Source: Alphaproteobacteria bacterium (GTDB lineage: Bacteria; Pseudomonadota; Alphaproteobacteria; Rickettsiales; JABDBP01). Taken from it: 64,000 nt of DNA. Of the stretch, positions 7,512 through 35,441 are shown one piece after another (within the stretch, counting starts at the first letter, position 1; every line of letters begins with the position of its first letter). The translations under genes were made by a program, and so were the position numbers. The notes under the pieces are model-generated. The model saw nothing but the letters and a program-made list of their open reading frames with translations, was not told the DNA's origin and did not search any database. The stretch is from assembly GCA_013288565.1 (NCBI GenBank), contig JABDBP010000002.1, positions 17,997 through 81,996 on the forward strand. Reading direction: 5' to 3'.

Positions 7512-7919
7512 ATGTGGAAAGAGTTCAAAGATTTTGCAATGAAAGGCAATGTGGTTGATCTTGCGATCGGTGTTATCATCGGTGCGGCATTTGGCCAGAT
7601 CGTGGCATCGCTGGTAACCGATATCATCATGCCACCGATCGGGCTTATTTTAGGTGGAATCGATTTTTCCGAATTTTATATTAATCTCTCCGGCAAAGTG
7701 TATGGCTCGCTTGCGGAGGCCAAGAAAGCCGGTGCGCCCACTATTAATTACGGTATATTTCTCAATCAGGTAATCCATTTCCTTATCGTGGCATTTGCTG
7801 TTTTTCTGCTGGTAAAACAGGTCAATCGTTTTAAAAAAGCGGCAGCGGCAACTCCTATCTTACCAAATGCTCAGGAAGTATTGCTGACCGAGATAAGGGA
7901 CATATTAAAAAATAAATAA
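7512..7919 (+). CDS. mscL: Large-conductance mechanosensitive channel
   Basis: [42 protein letters not shown] is the canonical MscL N-terminus. ATG at 7512. Confidence 0.95.
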
Positions 7920-16600: not shown

Positions 16601-19404
16601 TCAATGTAGGTGCAAATAACGTAACCATTGATGGTGTACAAATCAGCAGCAATGGTCAGAATGGCGTTGATATTAACAATAACAGCAGCGGCGTTATAGT
16701 TAGAAACAACATTATCCAGGGTGCTGAGTCAGGTGTTTACGTCAGCGAAGGCGCTTCTGGTATTACCATCGATAGCAATAAATTTGTTGCTACTGGCGGT
16801 GGTCAGGATGGTGTCTATATAGGCAGCAGTAGCGGTAGCAACATTACTATTTCAAACGACCTTTTTGATAGCAATTATAGAGGTGTATACATTGGAAATA
16901 GTGTAAGTGGTGTCACTATATCCGGCAGCACCTTCCAGGAGAGCGGCTATGGCGTTTATATCGATGGGGCATCAAATGTAAACGTTGATAATAATACTTT
17001 CAGTTCCAATGCAACCGGCCTCTACGCTACCAACGCATCCACTCTCGAAATAGGCGGAAACAGCTTCTCAGGCAGTGAATCTGGCATGTATTTCGATAAT
17101 ACAGGCAACGTGACGATCCAGAACAATACCATAGACGGCACTAATGGCTCTGGTGTTTTCATTAGCAACCTCTCACACGATTTTGATCTTGAAGGAAATA
17201 CCTTTACCAATAATCAAACCGGCCTTGATGTGGAAAACACCGCTCATACCATCAACGTTGGTCTAACTAGCGGCAACACTTTCCAGAGCAATGGCACCGG
17301 CATCTATAACAACGGTCAGGATATGCAGCTCGCCAACAACACCTTTACCGGTAATACAAATTACCAACTGCAAGTAGGTGAGAGCGGCACTTTCGTTATC
17401 AGCGGCGAAGGTGGTAATTCAGCTTCACCAAGTGTTTTTGACAATATCGTAGGCAACAATAATTTCACCACAGCTACAATTTCGATTGATACACTAGGTA
17501 ATACTTTTGCCATATACCCAACCATAAATTTAGCAGTAGAAAGTGCTGGTAGTGGTTATACGGTTCGCGCTTATGCCGGCGATTATAATAACGAAGGCAC
17601 CATAAGCATCAATCAGACGGGCATGATAATTGAAGGCGCAAATCAAGGTATAGCTGGTAATGGAACACGTAATCCTGAAACCAACCTGGTTAATGGCACA
17701 TTCAGTATAAGTGCAAATGGCGTTATCATTGATGGATTCAAATTCACTAACACTGGTAACGATGGCGTTGATATTAACAGCGGTACCGGCGTTATAGTTA
17801 GAAACAGCATTATCCAAGGTGCTGAATTAGGTGTTTTTGTAAGTGAAGGCGCCAGCTCGGTTGAAATTGCTAACAACAGTTTCAACAACAACGGAACAGG
17901 TGTTTATCTTAGCGGCAGCAGCGGCAGTAACATCCACGATAACACATTCACTGGCAATTATACTGCTGCATATGCATACTACAGTGATAATGCTACCTTT
18001 GATAACAACACTATAGTTGGTGGTAGTTCATCAGAAACCTTTGGTACCGGTATAGAACTTGATCATTCAAGCAATGCTGGAATTGGTGTTACAACTGGAA
18101 ATACATTCCAATATCTAAATACCGGTATTTTGACTCACAATAACCATGATGTTGAAATTGCCCAAAACACTTTCACTGGAAACAACGTAGCTATTGGTGC
18201 ATATAGCAATACTCTTGGTACCAATGGAACATCAATTCACAACAATGAGTTTGATAATAATCAATATGGCTTTTCAGCAGAAGGTAGTGAAGGCGTACAG
18301 CTAACCAATAATATATTTAGCGGTAATACTACCGGTATCGCCATGTTCACAACCGTTGGTGTTGCTGGTATTCTGATTGATAACAACGTGTTCAATCAGA
18401 ATGCTTCTACAACAGCCATAGCACTTGATGATGCGGCTGGTTCACATGTCACCAATAATACATTCAATGGTGAAAGCGGTGGTTTAGGTGTTGTTATCGG
18501 GAAATATTCATCCAGCGATAACGTGACTATCGCACACAATACCTTCAATACCCTTGATACAGCGGTTAATGTAAATAATAGCCAAGGCGGGATTGTTGAT
18601 TCAGATTTATTTAGTGGCAATAACACCGCTCTTTCCGTAACGGGTGGCGGTGGAGTAACCATAACCAATTCAGTATTTAGCGGTAATTCTGGTACTGGAA
18701 CTGGTATCAGCGTTGATGGTGCAACTTCAACCATTGCCTTTGGTGATAATTTTTCCACCTTCACCGGCCTTACTAATTACATCGTATTCGCAAACAATGC
18801 TCTTAGCGGCACGACGCTCGATGTGAGCAACCTGACATTTGATGGAGTACAGGGCGTTGCTATGAGTGAGGCGCAGACAGATGCAGCTAAGGGTAAAGTA
18901 ACAGACTTTGATAATGATCCGACCCTTGGCGAGATAGCGTTCAACAATGGCATCTTCCCACCTCCTGGTGGCGGTGGCGGCGGTGGCGGCATTCCTCTAG
19001 GCGGCGGCGGTGGTGGTGGCAGTACACCTCCGGGCGATAATAATGGAACTCCAACCCCTCCAGGCAGCGGAAGTAATAACAATGGCGGGAATAACAGCAA
19101 CGGTGCTGGCAATGGCAATAACGGCAATGGCACTGGCAACGGCATCGGTATTGGTTCCGTGGATCACTTCAGCGATGACTCAGGGAATAATAACAACGGC
19201 GCTCCCCCTGGCCCTGGCGATAACCATAATGTAAATCTACTGGCCGGCCCTGGCCCCGGCCCCGGTAACAATAACTTCGGCAACCTTTCACCTGGAGCCC
19301 TTGGCAATCTTGCGCCACAAGCAGGAGGCCCCGGTGGTAACGGTGACGCCTCTTGTGGCAACGCATTCCTTGCAACTGGGTCAGTTCCCGCAGGATGCCA
19401 GTAA
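13636..19404 (+). CDS. TpsA exoprotein: filamentous-haemagglutinin-type TPS domain, long parallel beta-helix (PbH1/NosD-like) repeats, Gly/Asn/Pro-rich tail
   Basis: TPS domain NKALINWQSFSIG...ANGQVYLINPNGIFF; dozens of N.F.GN..G. beta-helix turns; tail GGGGGGGGIPLGGGGGGGSTPPG...GPGPGPGNNNFG. Confidence 0.9.
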   Translation: MKSIFNQNCGSKKFNTQLKTTSLSRKLFASLAITSALAGVSAKANPVGGQVAAGNAQINQTNPNVTTVTETSNKALINWQSFSIGQGQLTEFIQPSSSSIIANRVVGVDPSKILGALKANGQVYLINPNGIFFSKTATVDVSGLIASTADIKNSDFMAGNRNFSIAGKPDASVINRGTITARNAGLVALVAPGVENSGIIQANMGAVVLAAGETATFDFYGDKLINFTVTSPATSKAKDENGNPLLAAVSNSGTINAAGGQVLITANAAKAIVDNVVNMNGIVDASSATVVGGSIVLNGGDAGTVNVAGSINAKGTTGGNVDVLGNEVVLASGSIIDASGINGGGKVRIGGDFHGQGPLNPAKTTTVENNAIIRNDAEENGDGGTVAIWSDEKTIFQGNVSAKGGANSGNGGFVEVSVSPTNGKGYLFDGKVDLSAAKGTVGTLLLDPDSVTIGDNPGADDGSYTGNIASGDNPGANMVISHGAVETALSTASVDIEAVNYVSVTTAIDVSGSSGAATHSLTLGADTINVNAGIALNNGDLNLNGGTAVNISTSAISLGTGNFNVHSVGGSGNTSSFTFDSASTINANSVNINADHSTISGAITAGGLVSIIGDSVAGSVLVDTGTISGAGAVDISAGTVNIASGGSVTSTGDNITLSAATATIAGSVNANSNLDISTTTSLDLNSTLSFGGILTSATGNPLVNIDSNSASINQGIALVTSLGTVSLADSTTYNQQVDINKQITLSGASQAGTVIDGGGNSPTLLIDGGGTGSIIKNLTVQNSGPTSNNIYIDPSATGVTIDHVTAQNAGNDNIYVGGDNATITGVTASGAGTANIEVGAANVSIDQSTVEGAVHGYGILNDGVTGLSITNTTFDSNQNFQYFTTGSATPADLDNLINTGGNTFKTAVVLIEPDNATLRTTGIYSKIQNAVNDAQTGAPGDIVKAYAGDYNEGQINVNTSGITIEGNNVGIAGNSHSNPETNLVNNTYFNVGANNVTIDGVQISSNGQNGVDINNNSSGVIVRNNIIQGAESGVYVSEGASGITIDSNKFVATGGGQDGVYIGSSSGSNITISNDLFDSNYRGVYIGNSVSGVTISGSTFQESGYGVYIDGASNVNVDNNTFSSNATGLYATNASTLEIGGNSFSGSESGMYFDNTGNVTIQNNTIDGTNGSGVFISNLSHDFDLEGNTFTNNQTGLDVENTAHTINVGLTSGNTFQSNGTGIYNNGQDMQLANNTFTGNTNYQLQVGESGTFVISGEGGNSASPSVFDNIVGNNNFTTATISIDTLGNTFAIYPTINLAVESAGSGYTVRAYAGDYNNEGTISINQTGMIIEGANQGIAGNGTRNPETNLVNGTFSISANGVIIDGFKFTNTGNDGVDINSGTGVIVRNSIIQGAELGVFVSEGASSVEIANNSFNNNGTGVYLSGSSGSNIHDNTFTGNYTAAYAYYSDNATFDNNTIVGGSSSETFGTGIELDHSSNAGIGVTTGNTFQYLNTGILTHNNHDVEIAQNTFTGNNVAIGAYSNTLGTNGTSIHNNEFDNNQYGFSAEGSEGVQLTNNIFSGNTTGIAMFTTVGVAGILIDNNVFNQNASTTAIALDDAAGSHVTNNTFNGESGGLGVVIGKYSSSDNVTIAHNTFNTLDTAVNVNNSQGGIVDSDLFSGNNTALSVTGGGGVTITNSVFSGNSGTGTGISVDGATSTIAFGDNFSTFTGLTNYIVFANNALSGTTLDVSNLTFDGVQGVAMSEAQTDAAKGKVTDFDNDPTLGEIAFNNGIFPPPGGGGGGGGIPLGGGGGGGSTPPGDNNGTPTPPGSGSNNNGGNNSNGAGNGNNGNGTGNGIGIGSVDHFSDDSGNNNNGAPPGPGDNHNVNLLAGPGPGPGNNNFGNLSPGALGNLAPQAGGPGGNGDASCGNAFLATGSVPAGCQ
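16462..16785 (+). repeat. Intragenic duplication in tpsA, copy 1 (best-conserved core)
   Basis: VKAYAGDYNEGQINV...NPETNLVNN...GVDIN...GVIVRNNIIQGAESGVYVSEGAS. The 24 nt at 16567-16590 are identical to 17671-17694. Confidence 0.85.
17563..17883 (+). repeat. Intragenic duplication in tpsA, copy 2
   Basis: VRAYAGDYNNEGTISI...NPETNLVNG...GVDINSGTGVIVRNSIIQGAELGVFVSEGAS. Offset about 1.1 kb from copy 1. Confidence 0.85.
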
Positions 19405-20783: not shown

Positions 20784-20982
20784 ATAGTTTTCTCCTGTTA
20801 GGCATCCTGTTTAGCGGCAAAGAAATAAAGATGTCATACGTTATTTTGGCGATTTCCAGCCAGCCATCGTTTACGGATTCCTTACGCAAACAGCACACTT
20901 ACCACATCGAAAAGCAACGGCAGGGACAATACTGATAAAGGCCTGGCCGATCCTCTAACCCCTTATTGGAAGAAGCAATTGC

Positions 20983-22724: not shown

Positions 22725-22744
22725 TACAGTAATACTTGCGAATC

Positions 22745-24316
22745 TCAGAGTTCATTGTCTATAGGCAGCACGGAAAAAAATCCTGACGTAACGTTGCGCC
22801 ATAACCCGGCCTGTGGATCACAGTGGTAACGCACCTCCTGACCCTGCTCCTCAGTAACCCAAACAAGGGAGCCATCGTCGATTATGACATGGTAGCTCAC
22901 TGATGGTGCAGTGGTCATCTCAAACATTGTTGTAACCTGCTCCGCTAGTTCCGGACTGTGAATAACTAATACTTGTTCGGTGTTTAAGTGTATGGACCGT
23001 GGATCAAGGTTGAAAGAACCTATCATCAGATCACGCCGGTCGATGACATAAAGTTTTGCGTGCAGGCCATTTTGCGAAGATGCTTTAAACATGTGATGAA
23101 CACTGGGTTTTGCCCGATCCAATTTGAGTTCATACAATTGGACGCCACCAGCCACTAATGTCCGGCGATAATGGCTGTAACCAGCCTCAGCCGGAACCAT
23201 ATCTGTGGATGCGAGCGAATTGGTGGCTATCCGCACCGAGATACCACGATCTGCCAGTGATGTCAGCCACTCTACGCCACTGTCCAGAGGAACAAAATAA
23301 GGCGTAATTATAATGAACTCACGCTGTGCATTGTTCACCAACTGATCCAGCTTGATTTCCGGCTTGCTGCTGGATGTTTCGCTCGACTGCTCGATCTTAT
23401 TCGGGCTGTCTGCAGCCAGTTCGGCGGTTGCCCAAACCAGCGGCACCTGGCCACTTTTAAGCTGTTTGGTCAATGATGTTTCACGCAGCCGCTTGCCAGC
23501 TTCGGAATGCAATACATCATCCCAATGCTGGCGTAATTCTTCGCGAAGGTGCGCAATCTCCGGCCCATCCGATTCTGGCACATCGAGCGCACCAACCGGA
23601 TAAGATTCGGGGCTGTTCCAATATCTATCAAAGCTTTGTGAAATCTTTCCGGTGATTGGTCCGGCGGTCAGCACATCCATATCCCTGAAATTAACATCGG
23701 CGCTGGCCTCAAAATACTCATCCCCAAGATTCCGTCCGCCCATGATGGCAACTTCATTATCAGCGATCAGCGCTTTATTGTGCATACGCCGAGTAAATTG
23801 GTCGTGGCGTGAGAGCGCGTTTCCGACATATGAAAAAATGGACTGATCATTGGTTTTGTAGGGGTTAAATACCCTGATTTCGATATTTGGATGCGTACTA
23901 AGCGCAGCAACTCCAGCCCTGAAATCGTCAAGATTCCAGTCATCAAGGAGCATCCGTACACGTACTCCGCGATCAGCAGCATGCAACAGTGTTTCTAATA
24001 ATAATTTTCCGGTGGTATCATCCTGAGTACTAAAATACTGGAGGTCAATGCTCCGCTCAGCCGCCTCTACCAACGCGATCCGCATCATGAATGCATCGCT
24101 GCCATTAGGAAGCAGCCGGAATCCTGACTGATCGGGATGCGCCCTGGTGGCTCGCGCCAGCGTCTTACCCAGTTCCGTCTCTTGTGCTGATGTGATGGCA
24201 AAGGATGAGATGCGCGGATAGTCAGATACCGGCGGACGAGTGGTGCAACCTGCCGATAACAACAAAATTATCAGGACAAAAATACGATGGGATCGGTACG
24301 ATAACTCTAATACCAT
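22745..24316 (-). CDS. Phospholipase D family lipoprotein (two HKD motifs)
   Basis: HKD motifs HNKALIADNEVAIMGGRNLGDEY and HAKLYVIDRRDLMIGSFNLDPRS. Lipobox LLLSAGC after the M53 start at 24316. Confidence 0.85.
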   Translation of the reverse strand: MVLELSYRSHRIFVLIILLLSAGCTTRPPVSDYPRISSFAITSAQETELGKTLARATRAHPDQSGFRLLPNGSDAFMMRIALVEAAERSIDLQYFSTQDDTTGKLLLETLLHAADRGVRVRMLLDDWNLDDFRAGVAALSTHPNIEIRVFNPYKTNDQSIFSYVGNALSRHDQFTRRMHNKALIADNEVAIMGGRNLGDEYFEASADVNFRDMDVLTAGPITGKISQSFDRYWNSPESYPVGALDVPESDGPEIAHLREELRQHWDDVLHSEAGKRLRETSLTKQLKSGQVPLVWATAELAADSPNKIEQSSETSSSKPEIKLDQLVNNAQREFIIITPYFVPLDSGVEWLTSLADRGISVRIATNSLASTDMVPAEAGYSHYRRTLVAGGVQLYELKLDRAKPSVHHMFKASSQNGLHAKLYVIDRRDLMIGSFNLDPRSIHLNTEQVLVIHSPELAEQVTTMFEMTTAPSVSYHVIIDDGSLVWVTEEQGQEVRYHCDPQAGLWRNVTSGFFSVLPIDNEL

Positions 24317-24320
24317 ATCC

Positions 24321-24596
24321 TTATAACCCCTTGAAGTCTTTGTTTGTCTCGGGAGAGCCACGTGTTTCGCAAAGTTTGCGGTCTTTGCGAACCGTTCCTT
24401 CAATGACGCGACAATCTTTGCCTGTTGCTGCATCGACCCCGTCTTCTGCCAGTCCTTTGCCATTAACGGCACGAGGCGCTACTTCCGTGAGGAAAATATT
24501 CGGGATCCCAGCTATCAGGGGCGCTCCACAGCTTGTAAGAATAGCCATTAAGAATCCAGCGGCGGTGAAGGCAATTATGAGAGTGAGGATATTCAT
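24321..24596 (-). CDS. Small lipoprotein, unknown function
   Basis: Lipobox MAILTSCG. Ends 5 nt before the PLD start and overlaps the upstream gene by ATGA. Confidence 0.5.
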   Translation of the reverse strand: MNILTLIIAFTAAGFLMAILTSCGAPLIAGIPNIFLTEVAPRAVNGKGLAEDGVDAATGKDCRVIEGTVRKDRKLCETRGSPETNKDFKGL

Positions 24597-24958
24597 TGAT
24601 GCGCCTTCAAATCGGTTAGTTTATTGCGCAGCCATTTTTCCGATTCTATCCTCGTGCCATCCGGCAATTCGACGTAATAGGGTTTTCCGGTTATTGAAGA
24701 GTGGCTTGCAATATTGTTAATAAAATCATCTACGGTCCGGATATTATTTCCAGATCTTTCGAGCTTCATCTCAAGATGCGCCTTTGCCTCCTGACCTGGA
24801 TATTCCACACCGTTACGAACGAAGGTTAATCCGGAAGTGCCAATAACATTAAGCAGGTAAGATATTTTTTCCTGTTCTGATAAATTATTGGTTGAGGCAT
24901 GAGCTAAGGAAGTAGATCCCAGCAATAGCAACGAAAGAAAAACCAAAGCGCGAATCAT
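24593..24958 (-). CDS. DUF5329-like secreted protein
   Basis: Signal peptide plus EKISYLLNVIGTSGLTFVRNGVEYPGQEAKAHLEMK resembles DUF5329. Confidence 0.6.
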   Translation of the reverse strand: MIRALVFLSLLLLGSTSLAHASTNNLSEQEKISYLLNVIGTSGLTFVRNGVEYPGQEAKAHLEMKLERSGNNIRTVDDFINNIASHSSITGKPYYVELPDGTRIESEKWLRNKLTDLKAHQ

Positions 24959-24984
24959 ATGGTCTCTCGTCTATTGGAAGACTC

Positions 24985-25016
24985 AAGAACCGTGGGGCAA
25001 GCTATTGCCCCACCGA
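24985..25016 (-). terminator. Hairpin downstream of the 25058-25399 gene
   Basis: GTGGGGCA (24992-24999) pairs with TGCCCCAC (25006-25013). The T tract on the minus strand is weak. Confidence 0.4.
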
Positions 25017-25057: not shown

Positions 25058-25399
25058 TTATGACTTGTCCTCATCCAGCTCTTCTTCATCGTGTTCTAGC
25101 TTTTCTCTATCAATTTTCCTTTCCGCCTTTTTTTCTGCGATAGCACTCAGATCGGCACCAATACGAGCGCTGTCGGCGGCCTGCTTTGCAGCATCTCCAT
25201 TGGCCTTATCTGCGGCCTTCGCGGCCCGATCTGCGCGTAGCATAGCCCGATCTTTTTGTAGAGCGATGTCATCTTTGTTAATGGCATTAATATCCGCTTG
25301 AATATCTTGTTTGTCCTCTTGAACCTCACTTCTGGCAAATGCCGGGGATGAAATAGCGATACCTGCAATTGCAGTAAGCAGTACGATGGTTTTATTCAT
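25058..25399 (-). CDS. Secreted Ala/Asp/Lys-rich helical protein (paralog of 29590-29937)
   Basis: Signal peptide ...SSPAFA. RADRAAKAADKANGDAAKQAADSA matches RRDRAAKAADKSLGNSASQAGDSA in the paralog. SD AAAGGAG. Confidence 0.6.
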   Translation of the reverse strand: MNKTIVLLTAIAGIAISSPAFARSEVQEDKQDIQADINAINKDDIALQKDRAMLRADRAAKAADKANGDAAKQAADSARIGADLSAIAEKKAERKIDREKLEHDEEELDEDKS

Positions 25400-25445
25400 A
25401 AAATTATCTCCTTTGTTGACTTCAACTTGTAAGGGTCAGGAAATC

Positions 25446-25493
25446 AAAATGTCGTATGGTTACTACGGCAATAATGTTCTTTCTGTATAAGTG
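25446..25493 (+). repeat. Conserved intergenic box 1, copy A (contains a 13-codon ORF at 25449-25490)
   Basis: 44 of 48 nt identical to 26906-26953. Reads ATG TCG TAT GGT TAC TAC GGC AAT AAT GTT CTT TCT GTA TAA. Confidence 0.8.
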
Positions 25494-25742
25494 GAATACG
25501 CCTAGTTACCCTTAAAGCTGGATGATGCTTAACCAATTGATTTATAGGGGTGTGCATGCCTTAGTGGACAGGTTGCGAACTGATAATTACCAGGATATTA
25601 CTATTGCCCCGTCATCTGCTGCACAATTCATAAAGCAGGGTTTATTGGCAGCGTAGATAGATGTATTCTGCCCCCCAAATGTGGCAGGCTAAAGGGGACG
25701 GATGTGCGCTCGCACATTCGAAAAAACCCTTAAAAGTAGTTG

Positions 25743-26072
25743 CTACTTACTATCTTTTTTCTTTGAAGTATCATCTTTATCTTTCTTCGAATGTTTCTTG
25801 GATTCTTTATGATTTTTATTCACGGTGCTTTTTGCCTTGCGGTTTTCTAATACTTCTTCCTTGGCATTTTTATTTCCGGGAACCGCCGGAGTAGCGTGAG
25901 TTTCGCCTGCATCAGCTGGTGTGGCAGGAGTAGCGGCATTAGAACTATGATCAGAATCCATATTAAGGCTGCCTGATGTATGACCACCATCACCACCGCC
26001 CCTTGCAAATACCGGCGGTGAAGCAATAACAGCCAGCCCCCAAATTAAAGATGCTAAAACTACTTTTCTCAT
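25743..26072 (-). CDS. Secreted Lys-rich low-complexity protein
   Basis: Signal peptide ...SPPVFA, SD AAGGAG, tail KESKKHSKKDKDDTSKKKDSK. Confidence 0.5.
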   Translation of the reverse strand: MRKVVLASLIWGLAVIASPPVFARGGGDGGHTSGSLNMDSDHSSNAATPATPADAGETHATPAVPGNKNAKEEVLENRKAKSTVNKNHKESKKHSKKDKDDTSKKKDSK

Positions 26073-26108
26073 TTTGTTTTTCTCCTTAGTTATATTGAAT
26101 TTACCAGA

Positions 26109-26480
26109 TTAATCGCGGTCATGCCCATGCCCGTGTCCGTGTTCCTCGTGCTCTTCTTCATGGCCTTTTTGCTTCCACTCACCACGGGCAAAGTGCCACT
26201 TTTCTCCTCTATGCTCCCAATGCTCAGGGGCATAGCCATATCCAGGACGCGCTTCCATCCAGCGTCCACCCATCCAAACATGTCGGCCATCTTCCCAGAC
26301 CCAATATCCCGGAGCCCATATATATCCAACACGCGGCTCCGGGATAACCTCAACCTGGGGAAAAGGAGGCGCTACACCGATATCAACATCAACATTGACT
26401 CTGGCAATAGCAGGTGCGGAAGCACCTAGAATAATAAACAAAAACAACAATAAAATCCGCAAGTATGCACCCATCTCCAT
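26109..26480 (-). CDS. YXWGXW-repeat secreted protein with His-rich tail
   Basis: GYIWAPGYWVWEDGRHVWMGGRW...HWEHRGEKWHFARGEW repeats; tail HEEEHEEHGHGHGHD. Confidence 0.65.
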   Translation of the reverse strand: MEMGAYLRILLLFLFIILGASAPAIARVNVDVDIGVAPPFPQVEVIPEPRVGYIWAPGYWVWEDGRHVWMGGRWMEARPGYGYAPEHWEHRGEKWHFARGEWKQKGHEEEHEEHGHGHGHDRD

Positions 26481-26500
26481 TACTCTCTATAATATTTTAC

Positions 26501-26746
26501 TTAATCAATGGGCCCAAAATTGATCTGTTTCTTGCTAGTAAGCGCCCCGGTCGCGGCGCCAGCACCACCACCAATCAAAGCGCCGACAACAGGGTTACTA
26601 TGAGTCAATACCGCTATTCCCACACCAGCTCCCGCGCCAATAGCGCCGCCGGAGAGAGCCCGCTGCCCTTTCGTATCCCCGCATGCTGACAGAAATAATG
26701 CCAGTACCATCGTTACAATTGTTAACCTTGCACTAATAACAGACAT
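26501..26746 (-). CDS. Glycine-zipper lipoprotein
   Basis: Lipobox LFLSACG; GGAIGAGAGVGIA...GALIGGGAGAATGA. Start at 26746 with SD GGAGGG. Confidence 0.7.
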   Translation of the reverse strand: MSVISARLTIVTMVLALFLSACGDTKGQRALSGGAIGAGAGVGIAVLTHSNPVVGALIGGGAGAATGALTSKKQINFGPID

Positions 26747-26905
26747 AATACCCTCCATTAATGTTCTTAAGGGTTAAGGTACCGCTAAGAATATAAAACC
26801 GTAATAAGGTTAACGCCAAAAATATGTAAGCCTGGTATAAAAAATAAAATTACTACCAAAAATAGGAATGGTTTTATTTTAGGAGTTTATAGCTTTCTCT
26901 AAGTT

Positions 26906-26953
26906 AAAATGCCGTATGGTTACTACGGCAATAGTATTCTCTCTGTATAAGTG
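26906..26953 (+). repeat. Conserved intergenic box 1, copy B (13-codon ORF at 26909-26950)
   Basis: ATG CCG TAT GGT TAC TAC GGC AAT AGT ATT CTC TCT GTA TAA. Contains the palindrome GCCGTA-N7-TACGGC. Confidence 0.8.
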
Positions 26954-27015
26954 AGGAGCGCTTAGCTAAACATCCATCACTAGAACACGCGTACGGGTTA
27001 TTTGCAGGGCATTAA

Positions 27016-27069
27016 AATAAACTTCGGCACATAAACCGCATGCTTTCTTTATAACAATAAGTCTAGGGT
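27016..27069 (+). repeat. Conserved intergenic box 2, copy C (upstream of the hybrid kinase)
   Basis: AATAAACTTCGGCA...CTTTCTTTATAACA.TA.G.YTAGGGT is shared with 29492-29550, with a 5-nt length difference. Confidence 0.65.
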
Positions 27070-27184
27070 ACCTATCGCAGATACCACTAACACTACTAAA
27101 GCGGCTATTCTTAACTTTCCGCACACGGCGAATATGCCGGATTCTTTCTTATGATGACCTCATAATAGGCCAGGTAAAAACCTT

Positions 27185-28741
27185 ATGCTTTCGTTCAAAA
27201 AATTTCTATTGAATTATGGCCTGTATATAATTCTTGGCCTAAGCTTTTCCTGCTTAGTGGTAACTTCCCAGGTGGGTGGCGTATATCGGGGTGATGAATT
27301 GCTCATTGGTGCAGCATCGGTCGGATTTATTCTGATATTCATTTATATACAATGGGACGCAAAAAAAACCGCCACTGCACACGCGCTTGGTCTGACCTAT
27401 GTCGCGCGTGACCTGGCCCAGTCCAATGTGACTATTGCTGAGAAATTAAAATTTAAAACCGATGCAAAACAGGAAGTGGCGGATAGAGGCCGCGAGTCAG
27501 CCGAGGGTGCTACGCAACTTGCAGAAAAAGGCCAGGCATCCGCCGAAATTGCTACTATTGTTGCTGAAAAAGCCAATAAAGCGAAATCTGATTTTCTGAC
27601 CAATATGAGTCATGAGATTAGAACGCCGATGAATGCCATCATAGGGCTAACCCATATTTTACTGACTACCAAGCTTGATGAAAAACAGAAGCAGTGCGTG
27701 GATGTTCTGCAAACTAGCTCACAAGGGTTAATGACGCTTATCAATGATCTGCTGGATATTGATAAAATGGAATCGCATGATATCGATCTGGAGAATGCTC
27801 CTTTCAGCATGACCTCGCTTTTGGACCAGGTGATCAGCGTGATGTCGGTTAGGGCCAAGCAGAAAGGGGTCAATCTTATCGTCCATTATGAATCAGGGCT
27901 TTATAAAACATATATCGGTGATAGCGGGCGTATTCGCCAGATAATGCTGAACTTAGTCGGTAACGCTGTTAAATTTACCGAACTTGGAGGCAGCGTGTCG
28001 GTTTTCTTTGCTAATGTCGGAAAAGGCAATGGGAAAAAGCATGTTACCGTAACTGTAACCGATACCGGGATCGGCATCCCGGAAGATAAAATGGGCGTTA
28101 TCTTCGGTAAATTCATCCAGGCTGATTCCTCCATCACCCGCAAATATGGCGGCACTGGTCTTGGCCTTGCCATCTCCCAGGCCTTGGCAAAACGCATGGG
28201 TGGCTATATTGCGGTTACCAGCGTGATCGGCCAGGGTTCCTCTTTCGTCCTGCATCTCATCCTGCCGGTTGAAGACACAAGCAGTGACAGTGAGAAGCAC
28301 TATCAGGAAAACATTATCTACCTAGATAGACAGGCCAATGCCGAAATATCGCCCATTTTGTTGGTAGAGGATTATGAGGCGAATATCCTCGTTGCCACCA
28401 TGATATTCCAGAATTTCGGTTATCATTACGAGGTGGCACGCAATGGACAGGAGGCGGTGGAACGGTTTTCTCCCGGCAAATACTCCATCGTCCTGATGGA
28501 CGTGGAGATGCCGGTTATGGACGGCTATGAGGCTACGCGCCATATACGTGAGTTTGAAAAAGCGAAAGCTTCCCCGTCCGTGGCTATTATCGCCATGACC
28601 GCTCATGCCATGAAGGGAGACAGGGAAAAATGCATCGCGGCGGGAATGGATGATTACATTGCCAAGCCGTTCAATCCACATCAGTTACAGGCGATACTGC
28701 TTAAGCATCTCAAGAAAGGCGGCACTGGAAAAGCGGCATAA
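27185..28741 (+). CDS. Hybrid sensor histidine kinase/response regulator
   Basis: H-box [38 protein letters not shown]; receiver ILLVEDYE...[11 protein letters not shown]...KP. Confidence 0.9.
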
Positions 28742-29383: not shown

Positions 29384-29491
29384 TGCCTTCTCCTTATGTT
29401 TAATAAATGTTAACAGCCACGAAGCTAGTGATGTAAGAATCAAGGTGCGATGTGGATCTGGCCGTATTTTATAAGCGGAGCATCAATTATT

Positions 29492-29550
29492 AATAAACTT
29501 CGGCAAATAGTAAAAAGCACATCCTTTCTTTATAACAGTAGGCTTAGGGT
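29492..29550 (+). repeat. Conserved intergenic box 2, copy D (upstream of 29590)
   Basis: Shares the flanking blocks with 27016-27069. Preceded at 29461-29484 by a collapsed box-1-like GCCGTATTTTATAAGCGGAGC. Confidence 0.65.
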
Positions 29551-29589
29551 CAAGCATCCGTTCAAACTTTTATAAAAAGGAATTTGTAT

Positions 29590-29937
29590 ATGAAAACACT
29601 TATCGCATTAGCTTTTGTCGGTGCTCTTACCGTTAGTTTCGCTGCCATGGCACAGACTGCCATACAGAAAGATGCGCAGAATGTGAGTGCTGATGCCGCT
29701 GCGGTAAAGAAAGATCAACAGGCTCTAGCAAAAGACAAAAGAGCCTTAAGGAGAGATCGTGCGGCAAAGGCAGCAGATAAATCTTTAGGAAATAGCGCAA
29801 GCCAGGCTGGCGATAGCGCGGCTATAGCCGGAGATAAAACCCTCATCAAGGAAAAGAAGGTCGAAAAGAATGCTGATACCAAAATCCTGAAGCATGATGT
29901 GAACACTTTGGATACCGACACCAATACAGATAAATAA
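29590..29937 (+). CDS. Secreted Ala/Asp/Lys-rich helical protein (paralog of 25058-25399)
   Basis: Signal peptide ...SFAAMA with a clear paralogous core. ATG at 29590. Confidence 0.6.
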   Translation: MKTLIALAFVGALTVSFAAMAQTAIQKDAQNVSADAAAVKKDQQALAKDKRALRRDRAAKAADKSLGNSASQAGDSAAIAGDKTLIKEKKVEKNADTKILKHDVNTLDTDTNTDK

Positions 29938-30959: not shown

Positions 30960-32198
30960 ATGGGAAAAAGCATGAAAAATCAGCTCGCAGAATCAATGCC
31001 GGTAGTGCCAGTATTGCACGATCAAGAGAAACAGGGGTCAGATAATCTCAGGCAAAATAATAGTATAAGACTGGCTGACTTCATTCATGAAAACACGGAA
31101 CAAATAGTGAATGAATGGGAAATCTTTGCGCAGACACTGAAACCTGCCGCCAATGACATGACGCCACTGGCCCTGCGTAATCATATTCACCAAATACTTA
31201 CTTTCATAGTAAGCGACGTGGAGTCCCCGCAAACCAGCTCAGAACAAATAAAGAAATCGCACGGAGGAAAAGAGAAAAGTTCCACCCCTACCGCAGCAGA
31301 AACTCATGCGGCTTTGCGTTTGGCCGGTGGCTTTAATATTGACCAGATGGTCTCGGAGTATCGGGCTCTACGTGCCAGCGTGATTAAGTTGTGGAGCGTT
31401 GCCAACACTCAGATGAATCATCTAGATATAATAGATCTGACTCGGTTCAACGAGTCCATTGATCAAGAATTAGCGGAATCGGTTAGCCATTACACAGAAA
31501 AAGTCGGTTCTTCAAAAGACCTGTTTATAGCCATATTAGGCCACGATCTCCGCACTCCGCTTGGTGTAATATCAATGGCCACCAAGCTGATATTGAATAT
31601 GGGGGAGCTTAGCGAACGACAAACTATGTTGGCTAACCAGATTGTTGAAAGCACATCCCGTGTTACCGCAATAGCTAATGATCTACTCGATATGACTCGT
31701 GCCAGGTTCGGTGCCGGGCTTTCCGTTGTCAGGGCTTCTATGGATATGGGCTTCGTAAGTAGGCATATGGTTAATGAAATGCGGATTGCTTACCCAAGGC
31801 GCAATATCAATCTTGAAGCCTCGGGAGAGCTGAAAGGCGAATGGGATAAGGCGCGTATCGGCCAGGTCTTCTCAAACCTAATCGGCAACGCGGTACAGTA
31901 TAGCTTCCGGGACTCATCTATTAGCGTGACTATAAAAGGCACCTCAGAGGAAGTGCTATTATCAGTGCATAATGAGGGTGTACCGATTCCCCTCGAAAAA
32001 ATGGGAACCATATTTGATTCCTTAACCCGCGCAGCTACATATGAAGGGGATCATCCGGGAGCAGTTAATCTTGGCTTGGGACTTTATATTACCAAGGAAA
32101 TCGTTGTTTCCCACGGCGGAACGATTGATGTTACTTCCACTGAAGAGGATGGCACAACCTTTACCGCGCGATTTCCAAAGGTCAGTATAAATAACTAA
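30960..32198 (+). CDS. Soluble sensor histidine kinase with an RsbRD_N-like N-terminal sensing domain
   Basis: Start at 30960 with SD AGGAAGG. H-box AILGHDLRTPLGVI, N-box LIGNAVQYS, G-box NLGLGLYI. No TM segment. Confidence 0.85.
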   Translation: MGKSMKNQLAESMPVVPVLHDQEKQGSDNLRQNNSIRLADFIHENTEQIVNEWEIFAQTLKPAANDMTPLALRNHIHQILTFIVSDVESPQTSSEQIKKSHGGKEKSSTPTAAETHAALRLAGGFNIDQMVSEYRALRASVIKLWSVANTQMNHLDIIDLTRFNESIDQELAESVSHYTEKVGSSKDLFIAILGHDLRTPLGVISMATKLILNMGELSERQTMLANQIVESTSRVTAIANDLLDMTRARFGAGLSVVRASMDMGFVSRHMVNEMRIAYPRRNINLEASGELKGEWDKARIGQVFSNLIGNAVQYSFRDSSISVTIKGTSEEVLLSVHNEGVPIPLEKMGTIFDSLTRAATYEGDHPGAVNLGLGLYITKEIVVSHGGTIDVTSTEEDGTTFTARFPKVSINN

Positions 32199-32969
32199 GA
32201 ACCATCTTTGGACAATTCTACCCCCCCACACCCGTAGATGAGAATGCGGATAGCAGCCATTCACAAATTCTAGCAGGCGCTGCATTGAATCAATGACCAC
32301 GCGCGAGCCGGTAATATGGATTCCGGTTTCTTGGCGTAATATATTCAATGCGCGGGAAAATGTCGCACCCTTCATGCCCAGGGTAGAAGCAATTAGCGCT
32401 TTATCATAAGGGAGATCTAACGTCACGCTATCTTTTTGTTCTAGCGTCGGAGAGAGCCCCAGCAAAAAGCATCCGATGCGTTGAGGGGCGCTGTAGAGCA
32501 AGTTCTGTTCAATTTGCATTTCATGGCGGCGTTTGTATTCCGCCATGGAAGCCAGCATATTGAATGCTAGCTGGCTATTAACCCTTAGCTGCTCTTTCAG
32601 AAGAGCAAGGGGAATGCTTAAGATTTCTGCATCCTCTACTACCTGGGCACTGCTGGTAAATTGCCCATGCTCAAAAATGGCACTTTCCCCTGTGATGCCG
32701 TTTCTCGTGAGCATCACTAAGCTAACTTCTTCGCCTTCTTCGGTGGTATGGAACAGTTTTAGCCAGCCGCTGTAAATTATGTAGAAGAAATTGGCCTGCT
32801 CATCTCTCAAATAGAGAAGATGTCCTTTCTTGTAACTCTTCAGTTGGGCCGCATTGGCAAAACGCGCCACATCTTCATCAAGCAGATTGGCGAAGAGCGG
32901 AAGATTTTTGAGAAAAGCTATGGATTTTTGCTGCGTAGAACCGGCCTCCCGTTCCTTTATTGCCATCAT
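32022..32969 (-). CDS. Crp/Fnr (FixK-like) family transcription regulator with an unusually long C-terminal read-through
   Basis: cNMP-binding-like FLKNLPLFANL...FFYIIYSGWLKLF; HTH ALIASTLGMKGATFSRALNILRQ; no N-terminal Cys cluster. The last ~59 codons lie antisense to the kinase CDS. Confidence 0.8.
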   Translation of the reverse strand: MMAIKEREAGSTQQKSIAFLKNLPLFANLLDEDVARFANAAQLKSYKKGHLLYLRDEQANFFYIIYSGWLKLFHTTEEGEEVSLVMLTRNGITGESAIFEHGQFTSSAQVVEDAEILSIPLALLKEQLRVNSQLAFNMLASMAEYKRRHEMQIEQNLLYSAPQRIGCFLLGLSPTLEQKDSVTLDLPYDKALIASTLGMKGATFSRALNILRQETGIHITGSRVVIDSMQRLLEFVNGCYPHSHLRVWGGRIVQRWFLVIYTDLWKSRGKGCAILFSGSNINRSAVGNNDFLGNIKSQAKINCSRMIPFICSCAG

Positions 32970-33080: not shown

Positions 33081-33203
33081 ACATCGCGCACCTGATTTCT
33101 GTACTGTCGCTCACCTTAGCTGGGCAAGTCTCTCTCCAAACCTAGCAGGGGAGAGTAAATTATGCAAGCAATTTTACCCATTCCAGATGATAGGAGTTTT
33201 CCC

Positions 33204-35441
33204 ATGAACCGTATGTTTTTTTTCCTGCTCTTCGCTCTCGCTATCGCAGTTTATTGTCCGCCGGGTTTTGCTGCAAGGCAATCGGCCGTCGGCCCCGGCA
33301 TCACTCCTATAGATTCAGATGGTATAACGAATGGCGTTGATATGACCGGTTCGGCGGGTACAGGCACTTTGAGCGTTGGGACGGTTGGCGGCGTGGAAAC
33401 CGATATCTTTCAAGCAAATAATCCTGTGGGGACTGTTGCCGGGCTTGCCGTTTCCACCGATGCCTCCAGTACGGCTAATATAGTTTTCAATAGCAGCTCT
33501 AATGTATATGGAAACCTAGGCATAACCAACCCGGGAGGGCCATTTTTCCTTAATATCTCCGGCGGTAACAACGGGACTACGGTGAATTTTCTTGGGTCAG
33601 TCTTTGGAACAACGTTGAACGTTACCGGGACTGGTGCAGTGAACTTCAATAACGGGGGCAACAACATAACGGCCACGAATTTTGCCGCTGATGGGCAGAT
33701 CAGCCTTGCTCCGAATACGACGGTCGTAGGCGCTCTTACCACCACGGCCGGGGCAAATACCGGTACGTTGGTGCTCGGCAGTGGGAGTGTTTTGGATGGC
33801 GCAGTCGGCGGTGCGGTTGGGCTTAAGGCCATCAACGTTGTCGGCGGAAATAATATTGCCGGGGTGAGCTCAACAATCACCGGCGCGGTGGACGCCTATT
33901 CCTTTTCTCTTGGAACAAATACGTTGCATGTCAGCGGTGCCCTTACGATCGCCAATAGTGGGGCCGGTGGGGTGATCAATACAACCCTGGCCAGCCCGAC
34001 TGTCTTTGGCAACATCCGTCCGGTGGGAACCACAAACCTTGGGCCAACGCTCGGGATCAATGTGACTGTTCCCGCTACATCTTTCTTCCCGGTTGGAACC
34101 CTGTTCAATATCGTCCAAACTCAGGGCGGGGCTCAAAGCGGCACTGCTGGAAGTGTTTTAGTGATAGTCAATGATCCTACCAATCCGCTTTACACGTTTG
34201 TTCCCGTACCTCTCGCTGGCACCACAGCTGGTCTGGTAGAAATAAAAACGACCAACGTACCGTTGCAGGCCGTGCTACCGCCCCCTGCTGGTAACAATGG
34301 GGGGGGAATCCCTCTACCTCCCGTGGTTGTTCCAATAATACCACCCTTAGTAGCCGTGCTTCCGGTGCTTCCGACCACTATCCTGGGTCCGATCAATGCT
34401 ATCCCCAACGCAGTTCAGCTAGCCAGTAATCTCGCACAGCTTTCCGTATCGGCTCCGGATCTGGCGGCACCACTAGTTACCTTTAAGGGAACCCAAGAGT
34501 TTCAAAATCTTTGGTTGTCTCGCCTGGATACCGTAATGTGTGACTCATCCAGCAAGCCCAATAAAAAGAATTCGACCTGTCAAGGAAACGACCAGAGCAG
34601 TGGTTGGTGGATGAAAGGTTTCGGATATTTTGGCAACCAAGATGCTAAGGATGGCTACGAGGGCTATGACTCCAGCAGTGCCGGCCTTATGGCTGCTTAC
34701 GATTTGCCCCTTGATCGTGAAACGCGCGTAGGCTTAGGGCTTGGTTATGCACGAAGCACAATAGATGGAAAGACGTTCGATACCAACACCGATTTCAATA
34801 CCTACCAAGCAATGGCCTACATCGGCCATGAAAGCGGGCCATGGTTTATTGACGGTAATGCTTCGTTTGGCTGGAATGATTATTCAGGCACGCGGAACAT
34901 TATCTTTCCCGGTACAGCTAGTACGGCGGACGCCAGCTACAGCGGACAGGATTACACTGCTTTTGCGAGCACTGGCTATCACTTGCCCGCTCAAGAATTC
35001 ATGGTCACGCCGTTTGCTTCTCTCCAATACACCCATATGGATCTGGATGGCTATACGGAATCGGGCGCTGGTCCTATAGACTTGCAGGTGGGTTCCCAGA
35101 GCTATGATTTCCTCGAGTCAGGGTTGGGAGTGAAGGTGGAACGTGACTTTGCCTATGAGGGTAATAAGTATGCACCAGAGGCACACTTAAAGTGGCTCCA
35201 TGAGCTGAACAACCCAAGGGTCGAACAGACCGGGGCGTTCACGGTTGCAGGCTCGCCGTCGTTTACAGTTCAAGGGTTAAAGCCAGCTGCCGATACCCTA
35301 AATATCGGCGCTGGCCTTACACTCCTCGGGTGCTCATGTAGTTCGAGAACGTGGTCGCTTGAAGCCGTTTACGATTATTACTGGAGAGATGACGGTTACT
35401 CGGCTAATCAGGGTATGCTAAGGATCACTGATCGTTTTTAA
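33204..35441 (+). CDS. Autotransporter (type Va) with Gly/Thr/Asn-rich passenger, Pro-rich linker and C-terminal beta-barrel
   Basis: Signal peptide MNRMFFFLLFALAIAVYCPPGFA; barrel region GWWMKGFGYFGNQD...GLMAAYD... ending in RF. SD AGGAG. Confidence 0.9.
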   Translation: MNRMFFFLLFALAIAVYCPPGFAARQSAVGPGITPIDSDGITNGVDMTGSAGTGTLSVGTVGGVETDIFQANNPVGTVAGLAVSTDASSTANIVFNSSSNVYGNLGITNPGGPFFLNISGGNNGTTVNFLGSVFGTTLNVTGTGAVNFNNGGNNITATNFAADGQISLAPNTTVVGALTTTAGANTGTLVLGSGSVLDGAVGGAVGLKAINVVGGNNIAGVSSTITGAVDAYSFSLGTNTLHVSGALTIANSGAGGVINTTLASPTVFGNIRPVGTTNLGPTLGINVTVPATSFFPVGTLFNIVQTQGGAQSGTAGSVLVIVNDPTNPLYTFVPVPLAGTTAGLVEIKTTNVPLQAVLPPPAGNNGGGIPLPPVVVPIIPPLVAVLPVLPTTILGPINAIPNAVQLASNLAQLSVSAPDLAAPLVTFKGTQEFQNLWLSRLDTVMCDSSSKPNKKNSTCQGNDQSSGWWMKGFGYFGNQDAKDGYEGYDSSSAGLMAAYDLPLDRETRVGLGLGYARSTIDGKTFDTNTDFNTYQAMAYIGHESGPWFIDGNASFGWNDYSGTRNIIFPGTASTADASYSGQDYTAFASTGYHLPAQEFMVTPFASLQYTHMDLDGYTESGAGPIDLQVGSQSYDFLESGLGVKVERDFAYEGNKYAPEAHLKWLHELNNPRVEQTGAFTVAGSPSFTVQGLKPAADTLNIGAGLTLLGCSCSSRTWSLEAVYDYYWRDDGYSANQGMLRITDRF

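Follow-up and report, generated by a model that had tools for sequence, protein, structure and literature searches.

What does a 48-bp segment that recurs among the genes of a small stress-protein cluster do, given that its edges fit a 13-codon open reading frame (ORF) almost exactly? In the window, i.e., the whole 64,000-nucleotide (64-kb) stretch of DNA that was analysed, positions 25446-25493 and 26906-26953 are identical at 44 of 48 positions, in agreement with the original prediction, which had read this repeat (hereafter the box) as a possible micro-gene. A degenerate 48-mer matched the window exactly twice, both times on the plus strand, and not once in 100 shuffles, and neither blastn-short nor nhmmer found a copy beyond these two in the 64 kb. 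The flanks had been described as unrelated, but they are not entirely so: a weaker similarity extends to 25441-25508 and 26901-26968 (81% over 68 nt), and a TAYAAR hexamer lies at the same offset from the box, towards the lower coordinates, in both copies. Copy B sits in the divergent intergenic region common to the Gly-zipper operon and a hybrid histidine kinase gene. The copies and the genes that adjoin them are as follows.

25446..25493, minus strand: box copy A, ancestral; gene-strand sequence CACTTATACAGAAAGAACATTATTGCCGTAGTAACCATACGACATTTT; separated by 46 nt from the ATG of the 113-aa gene downstream
26906..26953, minus strand: box copy B, the younger duplicate; the Gly-zipper lipoprotein operon begins ~160 nt downstream
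25494..25508, minus strand: weakly similar distal flank; 12/18 matches against 26954-26971, counting three extra bases
25058..25399, minus strand: gene for a 113-aa secreted coiled-coil protein, downstream of copy A and followed by the DUF5329 gene and a PLD-family gene
24593-24958, minus strand: DUF5329 gene, after the 113-aa gene
26501..26758, minus strand: Gly-zipper lipoprotein gene, which opens the unit downstream of copy B
26109-26480, minus strand: WXXGXW gene, after the Gly-zipper gene
25743-26072, minus strand: gene for a 109-aa protein, after the WXXGXW gene

The search of relatives that had been proposed with the original prediction yielded one more copy, in the closest relative (locus L035, positions 2231-2278; nhmmer E = 1.2e-12), at the same distance upstream of the 113-aa gene ortholog as copy A. 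The protein encoded by this ortholog is 84% identical, and the 10-kb L035 contig carries a single box copy. Between the window and L035, the box differs at 6 of 48 positions (12.5%) and the segment from the box to the start codon at 10 of 46 (22%), whereas the synonymous sites of the 113-aa and PLD genes give a pS of 0.45, against which six or fewer differences in 48 would be seen with a probability of 1e-6 to 1e-5. Judged from this comparison, the box is under constraint at the nucleotide level and is contiguous with the 113-aa gene.

25400..25445, minus strand: stretch between box A and the start codon of the 113-aa gene; 36/46 identical to L035; includes the Shine–Dalgarno (SD) sequence

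The similarity to L035 runs unbroken from the distal box edge (25494) through the 113-aa gene and is absent upstream, ending at the distal flank 25494..25508. With different genes upstream in the two loci, the 113-aa gene must carry a promoter of its own, no farther than ~95 nt from its start. Rearrangements set the window and L035 apart, and the sharp distal edge of the box might mark a breakpoint instead of a limit of function.

Wider scans for exact cores of the box gave no further copy, a negative of little weight. An exact 19-mer core scan of genome contigs gave chance matches in coding regions, a search to which the L035 copy is invisible because it differs within the core; an exact 18-mer core in metagenome contigs and a 16-mer in viral contigs likewise gave only chance coding-region matches, with L035-like copies expected to be missed; and blastn of the box core against a plasmid collection returned only chance matches within coding regions. 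In a separate locus (L009), PYGYYGN occurs within a His/Met/Gly/Tyr-rich coding sequence that shares 22 identical nt with the box, which was judged a compositional coincidence.

The 13-codon ORF was the headline of the original prediction, and its two copies in the window are placed as follows.

25449..25490, plus strand: 13-codon ORF of copy A, MSYGYYGNNVLSV; antisense to the box; TAA at 25488-25490; judged fortuitous
26909..26950, plus strand: 13-codon ORF of copy B, MPYGYYGNSILSV; TAA at 26948-26950; without an SD, and with its AUG paired in a hairpin

With the L035 copy, which encodes MSYGYHSNNVLFV with its start and stop positions unchanged, an ATG, 13 sense codons and a TAA stand at matching positions in all three copies. 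The described fit to the box edges was reproduced, with similarity starting 3 nt before the ATG and stopping 3 nt past the TAA, and ORFs fit the edges in only 0.5% of random 48-nt windows of the sequence when 3 nt of slack are allowed, and in 1.4% with 6 nt; this fit is real but post hoc, and is left as a coincidence. The account of the SD was also accurate, in that the SD-like AGGAAA at 25438-25443 precedes the ORF of copy A, and is kept in L035, while none precedes that of copy B; the real genes of the region have strong AAGGAG/GGAGG SDs. A translated ORF with a functional peptide, M(S/P)YGY(Y/H)(G/S)N(N/S)(V/I)L(S/F)V, acting as a micro-protein or a regulatory leader and possibly sharing promoter DNA, would account for the frame kept in three copies, for the edges and for the SD-like sequence, and for the survival of the frame in L035 despite the decay of the palindrome there. 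The substitutions, however, point elsewhere. Between copies A and B, one of the four differences is synonymous and three are non-synonymous, as had been counted, but their description as conservative was an overstatement, with pN/pS at 0.84 (about 0.9 for copy A versus L035). Across the three copies, the eight substitutions comprise six non-synonymous and two synonymous changes, spread 4/2/2 over the codon positions, whereas two or fewer third-position changes in eight have a chance of ~2.5% under a typical coding pattern by our own calculation; 6 of the 13 residues vary, including the radical changes Y6H, G7S and S12F. The proposed micro-gene thus fails the codon-aware test. In addition, the synonymous positions of the ORF are ~4 times more conserved than those of the neighbouring genes (pS ~0.1 versus 0.45), i.e., far more than is seen in real genes, which places the constraint on the DNA rather than on a peptide.

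The frame itself adds little. The opposite pattern, in which the frame would be broken while the palindrome was kept, did not appear in L035, where the frame is open and the palindrome decayed; however, the frame is retained by chance with a probability of 0.45-0.59 per copy (0.59 x 0.45), so its being open in L035 carries little weight. In the AUG, U and G pair within a stem of -7.5 kcal/mol in copy A and of -10.2 kcal/mol in copy B, the copy that lacks an SD, and downstream of copy A and of the L035 copy there is neither a gene nor a terminator on the plus strand, which leaves the ORF nothing to regulate in cis. The Tyr/Gly richness of the peptide follows from the CCGTA/TACGG dyad being read in the ORF frame, and the ORF would be a by-product whose ATG is the complement of the CAT at the proximal box edge. 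Leader peptides and other micro-ORFs of comparable size include the trpL- and pheL-type attenuator peptides and the 5-codon biarylitide precursor bytA. The box ORF resembles these in being very short, enriched in one residue (three Tyr) and overlapping a hairpin, but it is accompanied by neither a same-strand operon, nor a terminator/antiterminator pair, nor a nearby modifying enzyme, and it lacks an SD in one copy and codon-aware conservation. A literature search for YGYYG-type peptides returned no relevant paper. The ORF is probably fortuitous on this reading of its substitutions, and a functional peptide appears improbable; more doubtful again is a dual use, in which promoter or operator DNA on the minus strand would also carry a translated antisense 13-codon micro-gene whose product or translation feeds back on the stress island. 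On the minus strand, every reading frame across the box either lacks a start codon or is interrupted by stops, in copy A as in copy B.

We favour, with a probability of about one half, the reading of the box as a duplicated, lineage-specific cis-regulatory promoter/operator cassette for the minus-strand stress genes. An operator had been named as an alternative in the original prediction, and it comes close to this reading; the box shows neither a coding signature, nor helix covariation, nor an Rfam match. It would supply the -35 element and the sequence upstream of it to a promoter, in minus-strand orientation, that depends on an activator or is non-canonical in some other way, and copy A would be the original promoter region of the gene for the 113-aa secreted coiled-coil protein. 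Read on the gene strand, its proposed anatomy begins with an A-rich distal half (box positions 1-23) and continues with a dyad, TGCCGTA-N7-TACGRCA, centred ~41 bp upstream of the predicted start, which would be the likely site of a dimeric regulator; a -35-like ACGACA lies at the proximal dyad end and, after an 18-nt spacer, a -10-like TAYAAR lies just outside the box. The start predicted for copy A would give a ~20-nt leader containing the AAGGAG SD. We infer from the sequence which hexamers are used, where transcription starts, that there is a regulator, and whether copy B is active.

25450..25455, minus strand: candidate -35-like hexamer ACGACA of copy A, in the most conserved stretch GTAACCATACGNCAT
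25426..25431, minus strand: candidate -10-like hexamer TACAAG of copy A, 18 nt past the -35-like hexamer; transcription start predicted near 25419
26910-26915, minus strand: candidate -35-like hexamer ACGGCA of copy B
26886..26891, minus strand: candidate -10-like hexamer TATAAA of copy B, at the same offset from the box; transcription start predicted near 26879
25450..25470, no strand assigned: imperfect dyad TGTCGTA-N7-TACGGCA of copy A, 6/7 arm positions
26910..26930, no strand assigned: perfect dyad TGCCGTA-N7-TACGGCA of copy B; terminator-like on the minus strand, where TTTT comes next

The box lies within ~100 nt upstream of the 113-aa gene and is conserved with it beyond neutral sites, and TAYAAR recurs 15-20 nt past the box in all three copies (TACAAG in copy A, TACAAA in L035 and TATAAA in copy B, where the flank is otherwise unrelated to that of copy A), against a background rate of 0.0011-0.0019 per position. 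The candidate hexamers score 4/6 and 4/6, the last -10 position being G or A rather than T, and a consensus scan for sigma-70 promoters called none in copy A or L035, the -35-like hexamer included. The EcfG motif GGAAC-N16-17-CGTT has no match at 20-30 kb of the window and five elsewhere, mostly intragenic; models with sigma-54, RpoH and MerR-type spacing were inspected and did not fit. The palindrome is as described earlier, perfect in copy B and with one mismatch in copy A, but the arm matches fall from 7/7 (B) and 6/7 (A) to ~4/7 in L035, the invariant part of the dyad region being the spacer and one arm, GTAACCATACG, and a palindromic operator is not secure on the strength of these three copies.

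Class II sites of the CRP/FNR family place a dyad operator near -41.5, and NtcA sites have the form GTA-N8-TAC. The box dyad likewise contains GTA...TAC half-sites and overlaps a poor -35; its centre is ~41 bp before the inferred start, a -10-like hexamer follows it, and the window encodes a Crp/Fnr-family regulator (32022-32969). In contrast to those sites, the box has a spacer of 7 bp rather than 4, 6 or 8, its half-sites match no known consensus, and its dyad is poorly conserved in the ortholog, while its start is predicted from the sequence.

Copy B would be a younger duplicate of ~50-70 bp and probably a second, distal promoter of the Gly-zipper/WXXGXW/109-aa unit. At all four sites where copies A and B differ, L035 agrees with A, i.e., all four changes are derived in B, and at the six sites where A and L035 differ, B agrees with A in every case. 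Copy B therefore arose after the split from L035, whose contig has one copy, and it alone has changed since the duplication (4 changes versus 0), although this asymmetry is not significant (two-sided 0.125). Its divergence of 8% is well under the ~22% per lineage at neutral sites, which fits youth rather than selection. Moreover, between copy B and the Gly-zipper operon lies a promoter for that operon that fits the consensus better, TTGGCG-18-TATATT (26819-26790), and copy B, upstream of it, may be inert. These observations are consistent with copy A alone being functional and copy B being a young neutral duplicate produced by ectopic repair, template switching or the collapse of a larger duplication. 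This we consider unlikely, if still the alternative to be kept most in view: TATAAA at the offset of A and L035 within an unrelated flank has a chance of only ~0.2-0.6%, and one of the changes in B, the derived G, perfects its dyad.

Two further explanations assign the dyad a role apart from transcription initiation. The box could act as RNA, either on the minus strand as a terminator, leader attenuator or small-RNA 3′ module, or on the plus strand as an antisense hairpin RNA directed at stress-gene promoters or leaders. Copy B is indeed called terminator-like on the minus strand, with a 7-bp stem (four G-C pairs) followed by TTTTAACTT, a 7-nt loop and an A/U-rich tract before the stem, much as in Rho-independent terminators and Hfq-type small-RNA 3′ modules; the box boundary falls exactly after the T-run, the folding z-scores of copy B are -2.4 to -3.0, two substitutions in L035 leave G-U wobbles on the gene strand, as does the one in copy A on the ORF strand. 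However, hairpin stability varies among the copies on both strands (-3.0, -10.2 and -4.2 kcal/mol on the gene strand and -7.5, -10.2 and -2.5 kcal/mol on the ORF strand for A, B and L035, respectively), and no pair has changed on both sides in the three copies, either strand scoring 19 of 21 paired cells. The perfect stem is the derived state of the youngest copy, and stem and T-run are not conserved in A and L035, where the L035 run is broken (TATT) and no terminator is called; no transcription unit ends at copy B. Longer intergenic folds are unremarkable (z -0.5 to -0.9), the Rfam covariance models have no relevant match to the box, and L035 is GC-rich without a -10-like sequence just upstream of the box, so that a start at the distal box edge is unlikely. 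An RNA function is, on balance, rather unlikely. Readings of the box as the C-terminal end of a decayed gene or as a transcript 5′ end were dropped, L035 having no AT-rich -10 upstream.

The dyad also has the geometry of a recombinase core site, for which 7-bp arms and a 7-bp spacer are usual, and the two direct repeats bracket a three-gene block. The box might then be a 7-7-7 core site of a tyrosine recombinase (att/attC-like) flanking a 1.4-kb three-gene cassette (25494-26905), or a REP/MITE-type repeat, a notion with which the end of synteny with L035 at the distal box edge would agree. Among the window ORFs scanned, however, there is no integrase, transposase or RAYT; the box has neither the attC core GTTRRRY/RYYYAAC, nor terminal inverted repeats, nor a target duplication; and the 64 kb contain no more than two copies, the public scans having given chance matches only. 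An attL/attR insertion model failed, in that neither upstream flank matches that of L035, which also leaves an insertion event impossible to reconstruct, and the L035 copy is stably linked to the same gene. We regard a recombination or mobile-element origin as very improbable.

The promoter-cassette reading is set in context by more distant relatives, in which the ortholog of the 113-aa gene is preceded at this position by repeated promoter cassettes of another kind, made up of TTACG-N6-TTACG direct repeats in an 11-bp phase, with a CCGTA motif at the aligned position; they recur upstream of many stress-island genes. Such OmpR/PhoB-type ("pho-box-like") cassettes share with the box their position upstream of orthologous 116-aa and Gly-zipper genes, a common TACG(G) core with the aligned CCGTA, and duplication before several small stress genes. 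Unlike in the cassettes, the half-sites of the box are inverted and no intact TTACG-N6-TTACG repeat occurs in or beside the boxes, although such repeats are present in the relatives and at window position 20871; nor does an OmpR-family regulator gene adjoin the box in the window. Statistically, no homology is supported between the box and the relatives' "class 1" cassette, a hidden Markov model (HMM) of the cassettes having no match to the box, and any homology is positional only. Homologs of the WXXGXW protein (<=57% identity) are not syntenic, and around the orthologs of the histidine kinase (L030-L034; 80-83% identity) the island is arranged differently, with neither box nor dyad.

The importance of the box beyond its lineage is small, and its biology would be ordinary: a cluster of small secreted stress proteins, in an uncultured and probably alphaproteobacterial organism, appears to have been wired by the copying of short promoter cassettes. 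Should a dedicated regulator bind the box, this would be of help in defining a stress regulon for a group that is known solely through metagenomes. It also carries a caution, namely that a sharply bounded repeat fitting a tiny ORF can be non-coding, and here one orthologous copy sufficed for the codon-aware test. Taken with the cassettes that recur in the relatives, the window's second two-copy intergenic repeat makes the duplication of promoter cassettes, as far as such sequence comparison goes, a theme of this lineage; that second repeat ends at a -10-like TAGGGT before two plus-strand genes.

Our favoured reading of the 48-bp repeat (the box), to which we give roughly even odds (about 0.5), is that it is candidate promoter/operator DNA for minus-strand genes, with copy A (25446-25493) ancestral and copy B (26906-26953) a recent short duplicate; the box would stay within known kinds of regulatory DNA. 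The two copies are identical at 44 of 48 positions, as originally predicted, and a degenerate 48-mer pattern matches only at these two places, both on the plus strand, and in 0 of 100 shuffles. No third copy was found in the 64-kb window by blastn-short or nhmmer. The flanks, held in the original prediction to be unrelated, are only partly so: a weaker ungapped similarity spans 68 nt (25441-25508 and 26901-26968, 81%), and the flank of copy B by its TATAAA hexamer otherwise shares only 15 of 40 bases with that of copy A. Both boxes precede minus-strand transcription units, in agreement with the claimed setting among stress-like genes; box A occupies a 343-nt gap and ends 46 nt before the start of a 113-aa gene, and box B lies in a 426-nt divergent region between a kinase gene and a minus-strand gene run.

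25058-25399, minus: 113-aa secreted coiled-coil protein gene, followed by DUF5329 and then a PLD-family gene
25743-26072, minus: 109-aa low-complexity secreted protein, in the run by box B
26109-26480, minus: WXXGXW-repeat protein, same run
26501-26758, minus: Gly-zipper lipoprotein, same run
27185-28741, plus: hybrid histidine kinase gene

Stress-type genes are abundant across the window (HSP20, MscL, DUF1328, YceI, several sensor kinases, a Crp/Fnr regulator). No integrase or transposase is among the window ORFs scanned, and we regard a recombination site as a very improbable reading of the box.

Proteins of the source contig are singletons at 90% identity. In genome, metagenome and viral collections, exact-core scans gave chance matches within genes only, as did a blastn search of plasmids, and at the kinase orthologs (80-83% identity) the island is arranged differently, without the box. 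The DUF5329 gene led to a third copy: its closest homolog, at 80% identity, is carried by the JGI metagenome contig L035 (L036 being the identical sequence in a Logan assembly), where the gene order is 115-aa ortholog, DUF5329, PLD. An HMM built from the two window boxes matches L035 at 2219-2283 (E=1.2e-12), the one further copy that the search of relatives yielded; it reads CATTTACACAAAAAGAACATTATTGCTGTGGTAACCATACGACATATT on the gene strand and lies at the same distance from the ortholog's ATG as box A. At the more distant orthologs L037, L038 and L039, the box is absent. On another metagenome contig, L009 (~300-340, minus), 22 nt identical to the box core encode PYGYYGN in a His/Met/Gly/Tyr-rich coding region (…HHGNMPDSPYGYYGNMPYRHMHHGYGNM…), a match judged to be coincidence.

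Comparing L035 with the window gives a synonymous-site difference of 0.45 for the 113-aa and PLD genes and 0.22 for DUF5329; the box differs at 6 of 48 positions and the 46 nt from box to ATG at 10. Taking pS as 0.42-0.45, the probability of six or fewer differences in 48 is 1e-6 to 1e-5. By this comparison, purifying selection acts on the nucleotides of the box, which belongs to a ~95-nt conserved block abutting the 113-aa gene. The similarity ends at the distal box edge (window 25494); nothing aligns upstream, and the upstream genes differ. This edge may be a rearrangement breakpoint, because the window and L035 differ by rearrangements: the autotransporter gene abuts PLD in L035 and is ~9 kb off and inverted in the window. 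The rearranged segments are window 22737-24996 and 33192-35440 versus L035 3028-7610, and in L035 the PLD 3′ end occurs a second time, as a 180-bp copy past the autotransporter (7726-7902). Breakpoint or not, the 113-aa gene's own promoter must, on this alignment, fall within the conserved block. L035 carries the copy A base at all four sites where A and B differ, and B carries it at all six where A and L035 differ; therefore, B was duplicated once the L035 lineage had branched off, and all four A/B changes arose in B, one of them completing its dyad. It is rather unlikely that copy B is just an inert recent duplicate.

The original prediction had centred on a 13-codon ORF, and in both copies an ATG, 12 sense codons and a TAA are indeed present (peptides MSYGYYGNNVLSV and MPYGYYGNSILSV). 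The fit of this frame to the box edges is genuine, though chosen post hoc: in this sequence, an ATG-to-stop frame fits the edges of 0.5% of 48-nt windows within 3 nt and 1.4% within 6 nt. The frame also survives in L035 (peptide MSYGYHSNNVLFV), and AGGAAA precedes copy A, with nothing comparable upstream of copy B, as had been noted. However, codon-aware conservation fails: the eight substitutions across the three copies comprise 6 non-synonymous and 2 synonymous changes (codon positions 4/2/2; pN/pS = 0.84-0.9), altering 6 of 13 residues, including Y6H, G7S and S12F, and random substitutions would keep the frame open with a probability of 0.59 (4 changes) or 0.45 (6 changes). Conservation of its synonymous sites is ~four times that in real genes nearby, and its Tyr and Gly codons are nothing more than CCGTA/TACGG in that reading frame. 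Copy B lacks a Shine–Dalgarno sequence and holds its AUG within a −10.2 kcal/mol stem, and downstream of copy A and of the L035 copy there is neither a gene nor a terminator on the plus strand. A functional micro-ORF is quite unlikely; what still speaks for it is the edge fit and its persistence in L035.

The palindrome was correctly described as perfect in B and imperfect in A: the dyad TGCCGTA-N7-TACGGCA is complete in copy B and 6/7 in copy A. Hairpin energies for A, B and L035 are −3.0, −10.2 and −4.2 kcal/mol on the gene strand and −7.5, −10.2 and −2.5 on the ORF strand, with 19 of 21 cells paired on either strand. Copy B resembles a terminator on the minus strand, as an RNA role would allow, but this look is gone in L035 (TTTT to TATT), no pair is altered on both sides on either strand among the three copies, and Rfam gave no match. 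An RNA role is unlikely.

The promoter/operator reading draws on the gene strand, where TATTGC and GTAACCATACG-CAT are invariant in the three copies, and where a TAYAAR hexamer (background rate 0.001-0.002 per position) stands exactly 14 nt past the box in all three.

25426-25431, copy A: −10-like TACAAG
26886-26891, copy B: −10-like TATAAA
L035 copy: −10-like TACAAA

We infer a −35-like element, ACGACA/ACGGCA (box positions 39-44), which would lie at an 18-nt spacer from the −10-like hexamer, with putative starts near 25419 and 26879 and the dyad centre ~41 bp upstream of them. A consensus promoter scan made no call in copy A or L035, the −10-like hexamers end in G or A where T would be expected, and no EcfG-type motif is present; a promoter that depends on an activator or on an alternative sigma factor would suit these features.

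In relatives, repeated cassettes starting with TTACG-N6-TTACG direct repeats (11-bp phase) stand upstream of orthologous 116-aa, Gly-zipper, kinase and response-regulator genes, often adjoining an OmpR-family response-regulator gene. Three "class 1" promoter/leader cassettes of ~100-120 nt precede unrelated genes and share 75-80% identity, whether taken from one genome or from different ones. Many small genes of the stress island have the direct repeats ~100 nt upstream, and these repeats look like a candidate operator serving a conserved two-component stress regulon.

Window 20871-20886, plus: TTACG-N6-TTACG
L030 2517, 10454 (minus) and 13419 (minus): TTACG-N6-TTACG
L037 5344, 8432 and 8402 (minus): TTACG-N6-TTACG
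L030 2507-2625; L037 5333-5450 and 8421-8541: class 1 cassettes

When orthologous upstream regions are aligned, the L037 cassette takes the box's place, with the CCGTA motif aligned. We claim positional equivalence only, because an HMM of the relatives' cassettes does not match the window boxes.

Another intergenic repeat, ~85 nt long and with a 5-nt indel, is also present twice (27002-27085 and 29475-29564, plus); it reads AATAAACTTCGGCA...CTTTCTTTATAACA..CTTAGGGT, ending at a −10-like TAGGGT, and no copy turned up in the relatives' loci. One copy precedes the hybrid histidine kinase gene, the other a 117-aa paralog (29584-29937) of the 113-aa gene. This repeat, too, is probably a duplicated promoter cassette; the copying of short promoter cassettes ahead of stress genes is thus, judged from these arrangements, a habit of the lineage.

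Just downstream of the 109-aa gene, a G+C-rich hairpin (25701-25730, ATGTGCG..CGCACAT) follows a T-run on the minus strand and is followed by an A-run on the plus strand; on neither strand is it a canonical terminator. At its 5′ end, the 575-aa PLD ORF (22745-24472, minus) probably reaches too far; in relatives, PLD has 520-524 aa and a separate 91-aa gene ahead of it (L035 3431-3706), and a matching 91-aa lipoprotein-like ORF overlaps the long ORF at 24321-24596 (minus). A gene for a 1922-aa beta-helix/NosD-type secreted protein (13636-19404) adjoins a ShlB/FhaC-type transporter gene and contains repeats at 16567-16754 and 17671-17852 (plus), ~1.1 kb apart and 76-90% identical.
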